DNA of 64,000 nt, taken from the IMG/VR virus record IMGVR_UViG_3300005617_000117, positions 38,815 through 102,814 of that record. One strand, given 5' to 3'. The notes beneath the pieces are model-generated. The model was not told the DNA's origin and did not search any database. It saw only the letters and a program-made list of their open reading frames with translations. Positions 1,735-57,661 of the stretch are shown piece after piece. Position 1 is the first letter of the stretch. Each line of letters starts with the position of its first letter. Source of the stretch: a virus. Both the position numbers and the translations under genes were made by a program.

Positions 1735-3651
1735 ATGGTTGTAGCTTCTGGAACCATCCCATATCAGTATGAGGGAATCTATCCCTTTAGAGTGCCCGAT
1801 AGTCGATCTGTCGGTTTTTCTGGTATTCTATACGAACAAACAATGACCGTCCATACAGCAGAATTATTTAGATTCTTTGGATCTGATGACGATCCGTTCG
1901 TGTTCCAGAAGTATTTTAATATTAATGCTGCCACAGAATTATTTACGCCTCGACCTGATGGTGCCAATCTTGACGGTCGTGTGAATGGTTTGCCCGCTGG
2001 ATCATTCTTCATGAACTATATTGAAGACATGCGGCAGAGCTTCTCGCTTATGTTCTCGTTTAGCAACGTCGATTTAGCCGGGAATATTTTAGCCTTTAAA
2101 AAGGACTGGCTTCTTTGGGTCGGAAGCATTAGCGGCACTCAAGGAGATTTTACAAGATCCTTAGAAACAATTAATTCTGGTCCAATTCTTAGTATGGATT
2201 TTGACGACGTTGGGGCTAGTGGCGTTCTTACCGATATTGACTTAAGAGAAGTGTCTTACCAGCCGTATTCAAGATGGGGCAAAACTCTATCTGTAACTTA
2301 TAACATTGCCTCGGTTAGACTCGGACCTATTTTCCCAGGCTTTATGTCTACCGCAGGACTGTTCGTTAATTTAAACTCCAGAGAACAAGCACTTAGCTTC
2401 ACGACTGGCGGGACAACTAGAACGTCGGCAGATTGGACCGCTGGACAAATGATATTAGATGGAGACATGTTCTTCTCTGATACAGATTTTGCCCTGGCCG
2501 CAGGAACGGCAACTCGTCAAACACTAGAAGGTGATATTTCTCATAACGCCTATCCGGTACTTTCACTTCCTGGCCGTGTATTTAGAAATCACTTAAATGG
2601 CACGGTAGATCCGCGTGCTCGGGCGATCGTAGATCCCATTCCGTTAGCCATTGGTGGATATGGTATTGGAGCAATCAATAGTTTATCTGCTCATCCTAAA
2701 TTAGTTGTACCATCGGGCACTTTAAGTTTTAGTCCACAATTATCCTATAACGGCACTCATCTTGGTAGCGGATTTTATGTGTTTGATAATAGTTTCTGGA
2801 TTGACCAAGACGAAATCCTTAATCCTTCCGGCCTAAGACTACTAAATCCTTTGGCCCCACCGTCATTCGTTTGGTTTAGAATTGCAGATCAAGCTAATGC
2901 ATTTGACGATCTCGGCGGCAACCACGCCTGGAGCACGCAGAACATGGTTGGTCTGATGGATAACGGCACAAACTATGTTAAAATGTCCACCATGCTTGCG
3001 ACAGCAGATGCCGACAGAAAGATGGGATTCTTCTCATATGATAAATCTACTCTAGACCTTGTTTCAGTAGATCAACCGGTTCAAGACTGGACAGTATTTA
3101 CTGCAACTATCTCTGTCCCTGGAGTTTTAGCTCATGCCTCGTGGGATGGTACTTACTACTACGCCTATACCCAAAGCGGATCTGGTCCTGCTAGAAATAT
3201 CTTCTTATTTGATAGCGGATTTATCCTGGCAGACTCTAAGTTTTATGGGGCACACACATTAACTTGGATTCAGGGCAATATATTTACTGGCGGCGTTTTC
3301 GGAGCCGTTGGAGATACGGTCTATGAACTATTAATAGATCCTGATCCTGGCAATGACATTGTTACTGATACTGGCATTGCTTATACTGTGGATGTTAGCG
3401 TTGCAGCGTGGCCAGCCAGTCATTCAAGCGTAGTAACTAAAATCTATCCGCCGAAACAAATTACTGGATCTCCTTATTTTACAGACGGTACATGGATGAT
3501 GGCTATTAATGGATCTAATGTAGTAGTTATGTTTAGAGGTGAATTATCTGGATCATCTATTGTACCACAGGAAGGGTTTGTTGTCAGTGCATTGGGTGCG
3601 GCGGTCACGGCAAGAGCCGGTTATGAGTTCGTATATGGCAACTTTACTTAG
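1735..3651 (+). CDS. Putative virion structural protein (beta-rich, possible propeller-like C-terminus)
   Basis: 638 aa, Lys-poor and G/S/T/aromatic-rich, 12 SG dipeptides. N-terminal ASGTIPY resembles GSGTVPY/GSGTIPN of the 48365 and 48882 proteins. Confidence 0.5.
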   Translation: MVVASGTIPYQYEGIYPFRVPDSRSVGFSGILYEQTMTVHTAELFRFFGSDDDPFVFQKYFNINAATELFTPRPDGANLDGRVNGLPAGSFFMNYIEDMRQSFSLMFSFSNVDLAGNILAFKKDWLLWVGSISGTQGDFTRSLETINSGPILSMDFDDVGASGVLTDIDLREVSYQPYSRWGKTLSVTYNIASVRLGPIFPGFMSTAGLFVNLNSREQALSFTTGGTTRTSADWTAGQMILDGDMFFSDTDFALAAGTATRQTLEGDISHNAYPVLSLPGRVFRNHLNGTVDPRARAIVDPIPLAIGGYGIGAINSLSAHPKLVVPSGTLSFSPQLSYNGTHLGSGFYVFDNSFWIDQDEILNPSGLRLLNPLAPPSFVWFRIADQANAFDDLGGNHAWSTQNMVGLMDNGTNYVKMSTMLATADADRKMGFFSYDKSTLDLVSVDQPVQDWTVFTATISVPGVLAHASWDGTYYYAYTQSGSGPARNIFLFDSGFILADSKFYGAHTLTWIQGNIFTGGVFGAVGDTVYELLIDPDPGNDIVTDTGIAYTVDVSVAAWPASHSSVVTKIYPPKQITGSPYFTDGTWMMAINGSNVVVMFRGELSGSSIVPQEGFVVSALGAAVTARAGYEFVYGNFT

Positions 3652-3662
3652 TGTAATTTAAT
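3650..3662 (+). promoter_or_regulatory. Candidate phage late-promoter motif AGTGTA + AT-rich tract
   Basis: AGTGTAATTTAAT overlaps the upstream TAG. AGTGTA also begins the intergenic regions at 48268 (+) and 58086 (-). Confidence 0.4.
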
Positions 3663-3667
3663 TATAC

Positions 3668-3730
3668 CCGGATGCCAGACGGTATCTCGTGGGACTTGCC
3701 CCGAAGGGCCACAGGCGTTCGGACTTACCG
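3668..3730 (+). ncRNA. Candidate structured RNA leader, copy 1
   Basis: P1 CCGGATGCC (3668-3676)/GGCGTTCGG (3714-3722); hairpin AGA-CGGTA-TCT (3677-3687); GCCC-CGAA-GGGC (3698-3709); loop CGGTA is complementary to TACCG (3726-3730). Confidence 0.5.
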
Positions 3731-3767
3731 ATAGCTAAGGTTTAAAAAGCCTTGGCTATTTTTATTT
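3731..3767 (+). terminator. Intrinsic terminator
   Basis: ATAGCTAAGGTTT-AAA-AAGCCTTGGCTAT forms a 13-bp stem (2 G-U), followed by TTTTATTT. Confidence 0.7.
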
Positions 3768-3782
3768 GATGGGAGATTTTTC

Positions 3783-4439
3783 ATGGTAAGCGGAATTAGA
3801 TTCGCAGGATGTTCTGGAGCGATGGGTGGACAGCCTAGCAATAGAGCGTTCCCCAACGGTCTAGAAGTATTTAATATGCAGCCTGGGGATACGTCTGCAC
3901 CTCTACGTGTAGGCTTCTTCGGTGCTGGAGGGGCTCCTAACGCCTCAGTAATCGTTGGCGAATACCAAGACCGCACCCACAGAACTAATCATAACGGGGC
4001 CGATTTAGGCGTCTTTATTAATAATAAATTCTCATCTTCTACGGTAGCAATTGTTTCTGGCGTTACGTTCCCCAACTTAATCGATATGCCAGCAAGTTCC
4101 GGTACTCTGATGTGCCGGTTTACAGAGCCAAGTGCTCAGCAAGTACAAACTCAGAACGCCACGTTCCGGGCGGTTTCATTTAACTCTAACTCAGGCGTTC
4201 CGAACATCGATGCTATTCCTGCTAACGTAACCGTACAGGCTTTCGAGCTAAAGAATACGGTTGGTGGTGCTGGCAACTCTTCATGGACTAATATTACCAG
4301 CGGAAGCAATGCCCTTGCACTTAATGCACAGGCTGCGACCGCAACGGTTCATGACTTTATAGTTGCCGTTTCTGCTTCTCCGACCGCTACGGGAACTAAT
4401 CGAGACTTCGGCTTCGCCGTAAGATTAGAATACTTCTAA
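3783..4439 (+). CDS. Putative virion structural protein
   Basis: 218 aa, A/G/N/S/T-rich, 6 SG dipeptides, GGGAG RBS upstream. Confidence 0.5.
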   Translation: MVSGIRFAGCSGAMGGQPSNRAFPNGLEVFNMQPGDTSAPLRVGFFGAGGAPNASVIVGEYQDRTHRTNHNGADLGVFINNKFSSSTVAIVSGVTFPNLIDMPASSGTLMCRFTEPSAQQVQTQNATFRAVSFNSNSGVPNIDAIPANVTVQAFELKNTVGGAGNSSWTNITSGSNALALNAQAATATVHDFIVAVSASPTATGTNRDFGFAVRLEYF

Positions 4440-46133: not shown

Positions 46134-48269
46134 ATGCTCAGTTTATTACTCGCCCTAGTTCTAGCGTGCCCACAGTCAATTGATATTACGCCTAAATTAG
46201 TTCATATTCCGGCAGACAAAACGGCTGCCGGTACGTGGCCCAACTGGGATATGACGAACGTTGGATATACTTCTTATACCATTACATATAATTCTGGACC
46301 CAACGGGTTCTTAGCAAATGGTTTCATTGAAGTGGGATTTGGTTACGACCTCAAAGATGATGGTGTAACAAACGATCCTCATTACACGAGCAATCTCGAC
46401 TACATTATTATTCCTAATGATGGAGCTAGAGTAAGTCCGGTAGATCAATTTCAGATTTCTACTCCAAACGCAGCCAATTACGTTACTGTTTCTGCACCAG
46501 TCAACGTAACACTATCGTTAATACATAATTCGCACCCCGCCGAAAGAATGTTGAGAGTAACGTTTAATGCGGTAATGCCTGGAAATAGCACAGTTACCAT
46601 TACTTTCGGAGACACTTCTCAAGGCGGCCCAGGAGCATTACTACCTTGGAATCCTGGCAGACCTCGCCTCATTTGTTTTGAAAAACGTAATCCAAATAGC
46701 ACTCTGGTTGTGACGCAGCAGGATTTCCCCATCGTTCTATTTACAGCACAAACTGCTACGGCTTTCGTTGTAAACGCTCCGCTTGTAGTAGAAGTGGAAC
46801 AACCGTTTGAATTTATTGTACAGGCCGTCCAAGGTCGTGATGTTGGTCCAGACGCAGGCATGTCTCCAGTAGAAGATTTTACTGGTACTATTAATTGGTC
46901 AGCCGCAAATACTACGCTTTTCGGCTCACAAACCGATAGAACATTTAAAAGAATTGACCGTGGAGTTAAACGATACATTGGGATATGTCACTCTTTAGGG
47001 TTTACTAATATTGCTATTGATGCCGATGGTAGTAGTCAAGTTGCCAGTTCTGCAACAACGCTATCATATAGCAACCAAATAAAAGTGGTTCCTACTGGCT
47101 CTCCAGACAGGATTTACGTAGGAGATTTACAGAGACATTCTTGCGAAGGTGGCCATGCCGCCATTCCCGACTGGATGTGTTGGCGTGAACTCTATAGCTT
47201 GGGTGACGATTTCGGTACGGTGGTCGAGCATTCAGAGCTATTTTTCTTTGGTTGGCAGCACGCCAATAAAATCGCTCAAGACGTACAAGCGGCCCATCCG
47301 AATTTCGTTGTTTTTCCCGGCTATGAATATGGATTACCGGGGGCACATCGCCATGTGATTTTTAAGACATTTACTACAGATCCGGCATTGGCCGCAGGCA
47401 CTTCTGCATCGGCAGAACTTCCTCCGCCAGTGGTTGCCCCAACAGTAACAGATTTCTTGAATAATCTTCATAATCCTCCTACACCTTCTATTCCAAGGAT
47501 TGCTATTATTCATCATCCCCTATGGGACAAGTCGAATTTCCCTAATGCTCCGTTTGAATGGGGCCCCGATCTCGATGACTCTGTGCAGCGATTAGTTGAG
47601 ATTTATAGCACGCACGGTTCATCCGAAGTCAATCATACAAATCCTGGCCCATTTGATTATCCTATTGCTCATGACGCAGTTAACGGCGAAAGACCGGCAT
47701 CAGAGAACGCTTCTGTACGGGCCGCACTAAGCATGGGATATCGCTATGGTATTATTTGTGGTAGCGATAGACACGGCTACTACAGAAGTCAAAACGCTAA
47801 CGATGACGGTGCTGGCCCTTATACGAGGGCGGGCCTAGCTTTCGTTCATAGCCTTGAAGCTGGTTTGAGCACTAGAGATCGTATCTGGAATGGCTTCGAG
47901 AATCGTCATACGTATGGAACAACTGGCTCACGCATATATCTGAATTTCACAGCAAATGGATCATCTGTAGGTATGGGCGACCTTTATGATGGCCAAGACT
48001 TTCCTATCTTTAATATAGAAGTTGCTGCCGCCGGTCTAGCTCTGGATCATATTCCTAATATCACGGAAGTATCCATTATTCTAGATGGTACAAGCGTGGT
48101 GGTGGATTTTAATTATCCTGGGCAACCATTAGTCAATCAGAATTGGGTAGACCCCAACCCGATTAGAGACGGCCAATATCACTCTTATTATGTTAAAGTC
48201 CTACAGGATGACGGTCAAACGGCTTGGTCAAGCCCCATTTGGGTCAACCTTTCTCCCCAGGACCATTAG
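46134..48269 (+). CDS. Secreted PHP-family metallohydrolase (DUF3604/CehA-like)
   Basis: Hydrophobic N-terminus (LLLALVLAC); GDLQRHS, EHS, GYEY, HRHV, HHP, VEIYSTHG, GSDRH, TYGTTG, YYVKV.Q.DG..AWSSPIW. Confidence 0.75.
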   Translation: MLSLLLALVLACPQSIDITPKLVHIPADKTAAGTWPNWDMTNVGYTSYTITYNSGPNGFLANGFIEVGFGYDLKDDGVTNDPHYTSNLDYIIIPNDGARVSPVDQFQISTPNAANYVTVSAPVNVTLSLIHNSHPAERMLRVTFNAVMPGNSTVTITFGDTSQGGPGALLPWNPGRPRLICFEKRNPNSTLVVTQQDFPIVLFTAQTATAFVVNAPLVVEVEQPFEFIVQAVQGRDVGPDAGMSPVEDFTGTINWSAANTTLFGSQTDRTFKRIDRGVKRYIGICHSLGFTNIAIDADGSSQVASSATTLSYSNQIKVVPTGSPDRIYVGDLQRHSCEGGHAAIPDWMCWRELYSLGDDFGTVVEHSELFFFGWQHANKIAQDVQAAHPNFVVFPGYEYGLPGAHRHVIFKTFTTDPALAAGTSASAELPPPVVAPTVTDFLNNLHNPPTPSIPRIAIIHHPLWDKSNFPNAPFEWGPDLDDSVQRLVEIYSTHGSSEVNHTNPGPFDYPIAHDAVNGERPASENASVRAALSMGYRYGIICGSDRHGYYRSQNANDDGAGPYTRAGLAFVHSLEAGLSTRDRIWNGFENRHTYGTTGSRIYLNFTANGSSVGMGDLYDGQDFPIFNIEVAAAGLALDHIPNITEVSIILDGTSVVVDFNYPGQPLVNQNWVDPNPIRDGQYHSYYVKVLQDDGQTAWSSPIWVNLSPQDH

Positions 48270-48280
48270 TGTATTTAGAC
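48268..48280 (+). promoter_or_regulatory. Candidate phage late-promoter motif AGTGTA
   Basis: AGTGTATTTAGAC overlaps the upstream TAG, as at 3650. Confidence 0.4.
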
Positions 48281-48365
48281 AGGCGGTATCTAGTCTAGGT
48301 AGCGTCTGGTGAATTAAAATTCCTTGATTTTCTCCGGCCGCACCGTCTTTAGTAGGAGAAAGTCA
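48272..48365 (+). ncRNA. Candidate structured RNA leader, copy 2, with SD-sequestering hairpin
   Basis: P1 TATTTAGAC (48272-48280)/GTCTAGGTA (48293-48301); AGG-CGGTA-TCT (48281-48291); TGATTTTCTCC (48325-48335) pairs with GGAGAAAGTCA (48355-48365), covering the RBS and the A of the ATG. Confidence 0.5.
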
Positions 48366-49331: not shown

Positions 49332-50375
49332 ATGAGTATTGGTTTAGGTGGTCTAGTATCAGTAGGTGGTGGAACTGGCGGAAGCAGCGGAGGCTCCGGC
49401 AGCGGCATTACATCTATTAATGGCCAGCAAGGACCAGCAATTGTCGAGGTCGGTGTTAACGGAATTGTTGTTACTGCCGCAGGAAATCAAATAGTTTTTA
49501 ATGCGGCGGCCCTTTCTGGATTAATTGCTACAGCAACGGGCAGCGGAATCCGCGAAATTAACTCGCAAACGGGCCCCGCGATCCAAGTCAGCGGTATTAA
49601 CGGTATTGGCGTATCGCAGCCTCGCAGCAATTTCATTCTTATTGATTATGTTCCCCTTTCAGGGATCTTTGATATCAATGGAGAAGATGGCCCTCATATC
49701 GTCGTGGATGGCGTCAACGGTGCCTCTATAATCACCGGGACGGATCGATTGACTGTAGATGTGTCCGCTCTATCGGGTTTAATACAGACATTTACTGGCA
49801 GTGGCATCACAAGAATTAATGACCAACAGGGTCCAGAAATTCAAATCAGTGGTATTAATGGAATAGAAGTTACTCAGCCGCGAAGCAATTTCATATTGCT
49901 AGATGGGGCGGCCATTTCTGGAACAACTGGCGGCGGCGGCATGAACGCCTGTTACACCACATCATTTACTGGTGTGCTAGAACAGACATTCACTCACGCA
50001 CTTGGAACAAAAGCTATTGTTGTACAGATTCAAGATGAGAACGATGAATTTATAGAGGCCGACTTAATAACCTCTACCGATATCAATAATGTCACTATTA
50101 GGTTTAATCAACCACAATCCGGTAGATTGACTGTAGTTTCCTGTGGCGGGACTATAGCTACCAGTGGTGTAACTAAGTTTGCCGCATCGTTCTTAAATGT
50201 TACAAGCGGTCAATTTACGCACGGTTTCAGTACCAGGGACGTTCTAATTCAGGTCTATGACACTAATGGACCGCCAAGACAGCTTATGCCAGACGACATA
50301 ATACTAGATACCTTAGATACCATTAGTTTATTATTTAATGCGGCACAGTCGGGCAGAGTTGTGATTATGGGCTAA
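49332..50375 (+). CDS. Putative fibre/decoration protein with internal repeats
   Basis: Four SGI..IN...GP.I...G.NG repeats; two C-terminal TH......(V/I)Q..D...D......I.FN..QSGR domains; 15 SG dipeptides. Confidence 0.6.
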   Translation: MSIGLGGLVSVGGGTGGSSGGSGSGITSINGQQGPAIVEVGVNGIVVTAAGNQIVFNAAALSGLIATATGSGIREINSQTGPAIQVSGINGIGVSQPRSNFILIDYVPLSGIFDINGEDGPHIVVDGVNGASIITGTDRLTVDVSALSGLIQTFTGSGITRINDQQGPEIQISGINGIEVTQPRSNFILLDGAAISGTTGGGGMNACYTTSFTGVLEQTFTHALGTKAIVVQIQDENDEFIEADLITSTDINNVTIRFNQPQSGRLTVVSCGGTIATSGVTKFAASFLNVTSGQFTHGFSTRDVLIQVYDTNGPPRQLMPDDIILDTLDTISLLFNAAQSGRVVIMG

Positions 50376-56907: not shown

Positions 56908-57096
56908 TTAATTTCCAGTGAATGGCACCTTCGGACCAGCCTGCGTCCTAATCTGACGGACCTTACATTGATTACATCTTGCTACGGTCAGAACAACAAT
57001 ATCGATTTCGTCATTAGGATTTAAAGTGACTGCGTTTTCATCAATAATTATCTTGGCTTGGCAAGTGCGACATTCTCTAACTGTGACGGTTTTCAT
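56908..57096 (-). CDS. Small zinc-ribbon protein
   Basis: CRTC...CNQC. Confidence 0.55.
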   Translation of the reverse strand: MKTVTVRECRTCQAKIIIDENAVTLNPNDEIDIVVLTVARCNQCKVRQIRTQAGPKVPFTGN

Positions 57097-57661
57097 TTTT
57101 CTTTCTTCTCATTGTTCGACGCATCTTCTCAATCGTTTTATCTAGATGCTGGCTTATTGTTGCAGATGACACCTGGGTTAGTTCGGCAATATCCTTGACT
57201 TTAGCATCATTGAAGAATCTCTCATTTACTAGAGTCTTCTCATGCTCCGTGAGATCAGACATAAGATTGTCTAAGAAGTCGCGGCACTCTACTGATCCAA
57301 CGCCAGACATGCTTGGAATTTCGCCCACGACTTGTGGCGACTGATTACCGTCACCAAGTTCTAGATAAGACTCAATAGTGGGAGACGATGTATCGTTGCG
57401 GACCTTGCCTCGCAGCTTAGTCTGGCCCTTGATATACTTGAGTAGTTCGTGATACACGTAAGTATAGGCGTACGTAATAAACTTGACGCCCTTGTTCGGG
57501 TCAAAACCTTTATTGGCTTTTAGCAAAGCCAACCAAGCTTCCTGCTTTAGATCGTTTAAACCGCACGTAGCCCTATGAAGTTTTGCAATATTCGCAAAAG
57601 TAGAGGCCATCTTGTTTATGAGGGGTTCCCATTTGGTGGTGTCGAATTGTTCTGTGTACAT
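57077..57661 (-). CDS. RNA polymerase sigma-70 family factor
   Basis: DLKQEAWLALLKA...FDPNKGVKFITYA (region 2); LTEHEK.LV..RF...VKDIAEL..VS..TI (region 4). Confidence 0.88.
   Translation of the reverse strand: MYTEQFDTTKWEPLINKMASTFANIAKLHRATCGLNDLKQEAWLALLKANKGFDPNKGVKFITYAYTYVYHELLKYIKGQTKLRGKVRNDTSSPTIESYLELGDGNQSPQVVGEIPSMSGVGSVECRDFLDNLMSDLTEHEKTLVNERFFNDAKVKDIAELTQVSSATISQHLDKTIEKMRRTMRRKKNENRHS

Follow-up and report, generated by a model that had tools for sequence, protein, structure and literature searches.

The DNA analysed here (the window) is a 64,000-nucleotide (nt) stretch, bases 38815-102814 of the 102.8-kb IMG/VR record IMGVR_UViG_3300005617_000117 (G000), from an uncultured phage of roughly 155 kb. 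We investigated an intergenic region near its start (gap 1; 3649-3782, + strand), which is the promoter-proximal 5' leader of a gene encoding a 218-amino-acid (aa) protein. In relatives of this phage the orthologous gene is preceded by a two-hairpin RNA leader, whose structure is supported by covariation and which is new relative to Rfam. The window leader appears to be a diverged member of this family, and we think it rather probable that promoter box, leader and an overlapping terminator together form an attenuator-like arrangement in gap 1. Cis-acting leaders that choose between terminator and antiterminator are already known as a kind. To our knowledge, structured cis-regulatory RNAs before phage structural genes have rarely been described. 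With its leader supported by covariation and tied to one conserved gene and to a conserved single-box promoter, the family makes it possible to test how uncultured phages time or dose a virion protein, and it provides a natural comparison between members that use the same hairpin without a terminator (most relatives) and members that use it with one (the clade of the window).

When 39 viral and 35 metagenome loci, together with a single genome locus, were compared, nearly all relatives had a common order upstream of the gene: a TAGTGTA box, a spacer of 7-10 nt, hairpin 1, a 10-14-nt linker, hairpin 2, a tail whose pairing with this linker forms helix P3, and an open Shine-Dalgarno sequence. 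The consensus is a-G-C-R-U-U-G-G ... C-C-A-U-A-G-C-u for hairpin 1 (module 1) and r-Y-R-U-U-C-C ... G-G-A-U-A-R-y for hairpin 2 (module 2). Both hairpins contain an identical 2x2 internal loop, C-R-U-U / A-U-A-G (R.A and U.U), with C-G and U-A pairs on its flanks, while the terminal loops and linkers are variable. The inner stems are swapped, G-G/C-C in one hairpin and C-C/G-G in the other, an exchange that would prevent mispairing between the hairpins.

Across 32 aligned leaders (31 distinct), 93.4% of the cells pair, compensatory changes are found at 9 of the 13 pairs, and 66 cells are changed on both sides. None of 500 shuffles reached the covariation score, and controls in which the partner was slid by 1-3 columns gave just 26-52% pairing. 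The same two hairpins were returned by RNAalifold, and the many G-U pairs indicate that it is the + strand that folds. R1, a covariance model of the two-hairpin leader built in the present analysis, found the leader in 36 loci with scores of 20-69 bits, and the pairing and compensatory figures were unchanged on these 36 matches; the independent contig L114 scored 49 bits (E value 7.5e-11). Single-sequence folds recovered the two hairpins and P3 in most members. The linker-tail duplex of P3 reached -5.8 kcal/mol for a leader's own pair compared with -3.3 kcal/mol for cross pairs, a value matched by none of 2000 permutations. The Shine-Dalgarno sequence was unpaired in nearly all family folds, with hairpin 2 ending about 8-20 nt before it. 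A search of the whole window against Rfam 15 at gathering thresholds gave zero matches, in line with the remark of a first-pass annotation of this DNA that the region matches no riboswitch consensus it recognised; permissive scans gave four matches in 3600-3800, none of them credible (E values 3-6), and zero matches in the relative L027. Short leaders of about 30-45 nt, in which the box is kept and the two hairpins are gone, occur in L037 (1464-1503), L062 (1471-1503) and L086 (276-322), and we regard these as natural loss variants.

The window leader is situated between the TAGTGTAYT box and the orthologous gene start, the position that the leader takes in the family. All features of gaps 1 and 2 given below lie on the + strand. 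Hairpin 1 (GGAUGCC, loop AGAC, GGUAUCU; 3670-3687; -9.1 kcal/mol) occupies the place of module 1, but it is a fully paired 7-base-pair (bp) stem that lacks the internal loop, in the window as in the nearest relative, the contig G001 (164.5 kb; 83% identity in the downstream protein). In G001 (gap-1 locus L004, gap-2 locus L005) hairpin 1 reads GGAUGCC-AGAU-GGCGUCU (-9.9 kcal/mol), and the two changes of its 3' strand both keep the pairing (U-A to U.G and G.U to G-C). The GCCC-CGAA-GGGC arm at 3698-3709, already seen in the first-pass annotation, is present in the lineage of the window only and absent from G001 and all other relatives. The third hairpin, GCGUUCGG-ACUUA-CCGAUAGC at 3715-3735, is a perfect module 2 with its family-wide 2x2 internal loop (G.A, U.U); the loop pattern R-U-U-C / G-A-U-A was found in both the window and G001. 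A strict module-2 scan returned one match in G000 and one in G001, both at the gap-1 locus; a loose module scan was not enriched genome-wide (19 versus 13.8 in G000, 24 versus 25.4 in G001). Judged by its sequence, then, the window leader seems to have kept module 2 while diverging elsewhere. The conserved signature is thus the CGUUC...GAUAG hairpin at 3715-3735, which the first-pass annotation had split between the 3' strand of a helix called P1 and a UACCG element thought to contact a CGGUA loop. UACCG is indeed present (3726-3730), but it falls in the loop and 3' strand of this family-conserved hairpin, and the corresponding loop in G001 is UGGCG, so the proposed contact was not upheld.

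The box that opens the leader, TAGTGTAAT at 3649-3657, is a promoter-like motif that holds the TAG stop codon of the upstream 638-aa open reading frame, and the box of the second region considered here, TAGTGTATT at 48267-48275 (gap 2, 48268-48365), likewise holds a stop codon; in both gaps a TAG stop is followed by TGTA (3649-3655 and 48267-48273). The first-pass annotation had taken AGTGTA over the stop codon as a mark of these two gaps. It is present in both, but it is not special to them: AGTGTA is part of a TAGTGTA(A/T/C)T box with 12 sites in G000 (103 kb), 8 of which lie within non-coding DNA (4% of G000), all co-oriented with a nearby downstream gene start. By our own arithmetic, the binomial chance of at least 8 non-coding sites is about 3e-9. 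The TAGTGTAWT form has about 10 intergenic sites per genome, and G001 keeps the box at orthologous sites. Of 36 related contigs, 35 carry an unchanged box before the orthologous gene, in relatives whose downstream protein is just 43-55% identical; L026, with TAGAGTA, is the sole exception. In L026 the box and leader lie inside a divergent intergenic region, so transcription must start in the region of the box. Other TAGTGTA-box leaders in G000 likewise open with hairpins. This conserved box, enriched in non-coding DNA upstream of co-oriented genes as a sigma-dependent promoter would be, is best read as a phage promoter, a single-box motif recurrent in the phage whose overlap with an upstream stop codon is happenstance. 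A literature search on TAGTGTA as a phage promoter returned unrelated primer matches only. Two sigma-like proteins might, as judged from their domain matches, read the TAGTGTAWT box or other promoters of the phage: one with regions 2 and 4 (37.5 and 30 bits) is encoded at 57077-57661 on the - strand, and a weaker candidate with region 2 only (17.6 bits) lies outside the window on the + strand (G000 1731-2318).

Behind module 2 lies an intrinsic terminator (3730-3767), as the first-pass annotation had correctly recognized: a 14-bp, G+C-containing hairpin (3730-3760) with a U tract directly behind it on the coding strand. Its end is 15 nt away from the ATG at 3783. The 5' strand of the stem starts with GAUAGC (3730-3735), which is at the same time part of module 2, so that the two hairpins overlap. 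The same arrangement is found in G001 (L004 2364-2402) and in L091 (1145-1186), and the upper stem carries compensatory changes across the three lineages (UAAGG/CCUUG, CAAGAC/GUCUUG and CCCGGCG/CGCUUGGG). In the protein tree the window, G001 and L091 form one clade (98/75) within a starred group that includes L026 and L086. Because the three carriers form one clade and the window and L091 proteins are 50% identical, we conclude that the terminator arose once and was kept over a deep divergence. Most relatives are without it, and 34 other contigs show the leader continuing directly into the gene. No promoter-like box was found between the terminator and the ATG, so expression of the 218-aa gene needs read-through.

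Folding of the leader in successive prefixes revealed two mutually exclusive sets of pairings. The prefix to 3712 formed hairpin 1 and the arm, and the prefix to 3723 formed P1, the pairing of 3668-3676 with 3714-3722 (3668-3722 overall). Prefixes to 3736-3745 formed hairpin 1, the arm, module 2 and a GACUU/AGGUU helix around the arm and module 2 (-27.5 / -28.6 kcal/mol), which hides nearly all of the 5' strand of the terminator. This last structure (3693-3742), the minimum-energy fold of the prefix 3660-3745, is a candidate antiterminator and corresponds to the long hairpin 2 of the family (P3 plus module 2). The full-length leader folded into P1 and the terminator, at -43.3 kcal/mol compared with -33.2 kcal/mol when module 2 was enforced. 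P1 is incompatible with both hairpin 1 and module 2 and is for that reason a candidate anti-antiterminator; 8 of its 9 pairs are kept in G001, and it is absent in L091. Written as segments, A:B (hairpin 1) and C:D (module 2, antiterminator) stand against A:C (P1) and D:E (terminator), so that hairpin 1 plus hairpin 2 exclude P1 plus the terminator, and in these chained competing pairings the leader resembles classical attenuators. The same competition between antiterminator and terminator was seen in L091.

Since termination is the thermodynamic default, a factor would be needed to stabilise the conserved hairpin for read-through. Such a factor would bind the conserved internal loop of module 2, an invariant feature that would offer an obvious protein handle, and would hold the antiterminator hairpin, upon which RNA polymerase would pass the terminator and transcribe the 218-aa gene together with those that follow. 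In the absence of the factor the terminator would be favoured by about 10 kcal/mol, and transcription would end with the release of a roughly 105-nt leader RNA. The protein-bound attenuator of the first-pass annotation thus survives for gap 1 as the best mechanistic guess, though not for both gaps, and factor-dependent antitermination through module 2 is in our view the likeliest mechanism, though with odds somewhat less than even. The wider proposal that the C-R-U-U / A-U-A-G leader represents a new class of factor-responsive riboregulator of late virion-gene expression across a large family of uncultured phages, built into a full attenuator in the clade of the window (with hairpin 1, antiterminator hairpin 2, anti-antiterminator P1 and terminator as its parts), we regard as possible but doubtful.

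Several observations weigh against the attenuator reading. R1 scored the window at 10.7 bits (E value 1.2), which is not significant, and aligned to 3715-3735 only; membership of the window leader in the family consequently rests on position and one module. In G001 the competition is less clean, its prefixes favouring a GCGUU helix over the outer stem of module 2, and with the terminator present in three lineages only, covariation cannot separate P1 from hairpin 1. No RNA-binding factor was identified: an ANTAR domain was not found in G000 or G001, records that are 66% and 80% complete, the scan giving one sub-threshold match of 13.8 bits inside a 1687-aa frame of G001. A host-encoded factor is possible. 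The absence of the terminator from most relatives implies that the leader did not originally serve attenuation; its ancestral role was probably translation control or mRNA stability, exerted by the same factor or by none. The terminator could also simply be leaky and so set expression levels.

One alternative places the control at translation: the two identical internal loops would bind a dimeric repressor, perhaps the 218-aa protein itself or some other operon product, which would place a virion protein under feedback control and leave the terminator of the window's clade secondary. Two like sites 10-14 nt apart would suit such a repressor, as would the short distance (about 8-20 nt) from the end of hairpin 2 to the Shine-Dalgarno sequence, the restriction of the motif to the 218-aa gene in G000 and G001, and inserted HNH endonuclease genes (described below) that take over the Shine-Dalgarno sequence of the leader. 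An RNA-binding fold was not recognised in the predicted structure of the 218-aa protein, a low-confidence model with a mean predicted local distance difference test (pLDDT) score of 64, and we consider a translational operator of this kind an uncertain prospect, on the unlikely side.

The hairpins might, alternatively, do nothing more than shield a highly expressed late mRNA from decay that depends on the 5' end, with a leaky and unregulated terminator that ends the transcripts of the upstream fibre gene and sets the downstream dose. The hairpins at the start of other TAGTGTA-box leaders, the open Shine-Dalgarno sequence and the scarcity of the terminator among relatives all agree with such a constitutive leader. 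A stabilising hairpin, however, needs no invariant C-R-U-U / A-U-A-G mismatches in two hairpins with swapped stems, nor does it call for a terminator that starts exactly within module 2 in three lineages, and we judge this explanation unlikely.

A leader that acts in cis on RNA polymerase as a factor-independent processive antiterminator, in the manner of HK022 put or the Bacillus EAR RNA, would make the polymerase ignore the gap-1 terminator and later ones in the long + strand array. Two abutting stem-loops right after a promoter that heads about 49 kb of co-oriented genes would fit this, and so would the strong terminator directly behind them in the clade of the window; but it is in the window and G001, which carry the terminator, that the signature of module 1 has been lost, Rfam shows no sequence likeness to known antiterminator RNAs, and such an antiterminator seems improbable. 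Equally little favours a stand-alone small RNA of about 105 nt, running from box to terminator and acting in trans: the spacing of box and strong terminator (about 105 nt) and its retention in G001 and L091 would allow it, but the downstream gene, which looks essential, lacks its own promoter and in the 34 other contigs the leader continues straight into the gene, which makes it quite improbable.

The reading with least in its favour is that of the first-pass annotation, in which one riboswitch-like or protein-bound element, recognizable by P1, an AGRCGGTATCT core and an unpaired A, exists in two copies and controls both virion modules; it is highly improbable and already largely refuted. The core letters are present in both gaps (AGACGGTATCT at 3677-3687 and AGGCGGTATCT at 48281-48291), but their sharing is within chance once all places looked at are allowed for: 16 intergenic pairs of the window have an 11-mer in common (at most one mismatch) compared with 9.6 in shuffles, 5 pairs share a 12-mer compared with 3.3, and the core pattern has 4 matches (at most one mismatch) where 1.5 are expected, a count reached by 7 of 100 shuffles. 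G001 retains the core in copy 2, but in copy 1 it reads AGATGGCGTCT, with 3 of 12 positions changed and the local hairpin preserved. In gap 1 the core corresponds to the loop and 3' strand of hairpin 1; its GGUAUCU is thus the 3' strand of the local hairpin at 3670-3687, whereas in gap 2 it is the 5' strand of the hairpin at 48280-48308. Lying on opposite strands of different hairpins, the core has no common structural role. A 9-bp helix had been claimed for each copy; that of copy 1 (P1) belongs to the minimum-energy fold, whereas that of copy 2 (48272-48280/48293-48301) loses 3 of its 9 pairs in G001. R1 gave no significant match to either gap, and distant gap-2 orthologues are without such a sequence. 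What the gaps share is therefore a promoter box and a chance 11-mer, nothing more, and the short word common to them means no more than that. The proposal of an RNA element holds for gap 1, through the covariation-supported leader family and with conserved parts other than those first named, and fails for gap 2, which is not a copy.

Gap 2 is a separate leader, unrelated to that of gap 1. Its box is followed by two hairpins, one promoter-proximal and the other sequestering the Shine-Dalgarno sequence, and both are kept in G001; R1 gave no match in gap 2. The promoter-proximal hairpin (CAGGCG.UAUCUA / UAGGUA.CGUCUG; 48280-48308; 13 bp, -15.3 kcal/mol) is conserved in G001 (L005, -16.9 kcal/mol) and absent from more distant relatives. 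A 162-aa gene has its start codon and GGAG ribosome-binding site buried in the hairpin at 48325-48365, which is retained in G001 (L005 about 1540-1605) with changes that preserve the pairing. An ACCGTCT sequence in the loop of this second hairpin was considered as a switch and rejected, the G001 sequence being ACCCTGT. In distant gap-2 orthologues the leader is short and of a different kind; it comes after a terminator and the box, with the box directly behind a G+C-rich terminator hairpin. In L099-L108, just upstream of position 1500, the stem of a strong G+C-rich hairpin ends 0-2 nt before TAGTGTA, so that hairpin and box are fused before the 162-aa gene into a compact cassette of terminator and promoter.

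Among known systems, the targets of the BglG-SacY-LicT antiterminators (ribonucleic antiterminator, RAT) and of ANTAR proteins are imperfect hairpins with conserved unpaired nucleotides that overlap the 5' strand of a terminator, and protein binding favours the hairpin over the terminator. Gap 1 is analogous in that the 3' part of its hairpin overlaps the 5' strand of the terminator, and binding would favour the hairpin. By contrast, its motif is a 2x2 internal loop, neither a RAT loop nor an ANTAR hexaloop; no ANTAR protein was found and the RNA-binding CAT domain was not searched for, and most family members have no terminator. The placing of a strong terminator within about 100-200 nt of a late promoter, before virion genes, recalls the lambda PR'-6S RNA-tR' region controlled by Q, and two stem-loops just behind a promoter recall HK022 put; unlike in those systems, neither a Q-like protein nor a qut-type site was identified, the sequences are not alike, and the terminator is confined to one clade. 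T4 late promoters (TATAAATA, read by gp55) are similar in having a short -10-type box with no evident -35 element before structural genes, and this phage too encodes a small sigma-like protein; the box here is, however, TAGTGTAWT, its reader is a candidate only, and the phage has in addition a gene for a sigma factor comprising regions 2 and 4. Promoter and hairpin at gene borders, and HNH genes beside structural genes, are reminiscent of the promoter-stem-loop cassettes and homing endonucleases of T4-type phages, whereas the hairpins described here carry a family-wide internal-loop signature and are attached to one gene.

The 218-aa gene occupies 3771-4439 when its GGGAG Shine-Dalgarno sequence is included. 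Its product, probably a virion protein, has more than 120 homologues, none of them named, on contigs of about 150-180 kb. The structure model is a beta-sandwich, and a Foldseek search with it gave no match at an E value of 0.001 or better; the best VIA Z score was 4.6, and the protein was assigned to no family. In the AlphaFold model residues 1-70 are unstructured; the first 16 residues (MVSGIRFFACSGAMGG; 3783-3830) are almost invariant across the family. Searches of the proteins flanking the gaps against PHROGs and Pfam revealed nothing beyond ThyX and one weak match, to a 'virion structural protein', for the product of 49332-50375.

In at least five lineages an HNH endonuclease gene (Pfam HNH, E values 1e-11 to 1e-14) lies precisely between the leader and the 218-aa gene: L004 2316-2978 (G001), L048 871-1501, L065 410-1198, L086 321-1199 and L068 12-287. 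The HNH gene uses the leader's own Shine-Dalgarno sequence and ATG in L048 and L065, and lies behind the terminator in G001; L032 and L049 show, at about 1410-1500, what appear to be the first codons of a lost HNH gene. The junction between leader and 218-aa gene is a recurrent homing hot spot.

G000 has an estimated completeness of 66%, and no tRNA genes were found in it. The + strand carries all window genes from 1 to 52680, about 49 kb of which are headed by the gap-1 promoter and leader. At the gap-1 locus, isolated phages gave no match by megablast (20 kb) or by tblastn with the 218-aa protein; a DnaE-like protein alone finds phage records, and these are distant. L114 (NZ_JAILWB010000012.1), which carries the gene and leader, has the size of a whole phage (157.9 kb) and is binned in a Hydrogenophaga metagenome-assembled genome; this may be a host hint or a binning artefact, and since binning is weak evidence we do not claim a host. 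The 37 leader-bearing contigs (the 36 R1 loci and L114) come from soil, rhizosphere, groundwater and freshwater metagenomes. Among the sequencing runs listed as containing the sequence none was an RNA run; DNA contigs of four runs covering 3400-4100 carried an identical leader, with zero variants.

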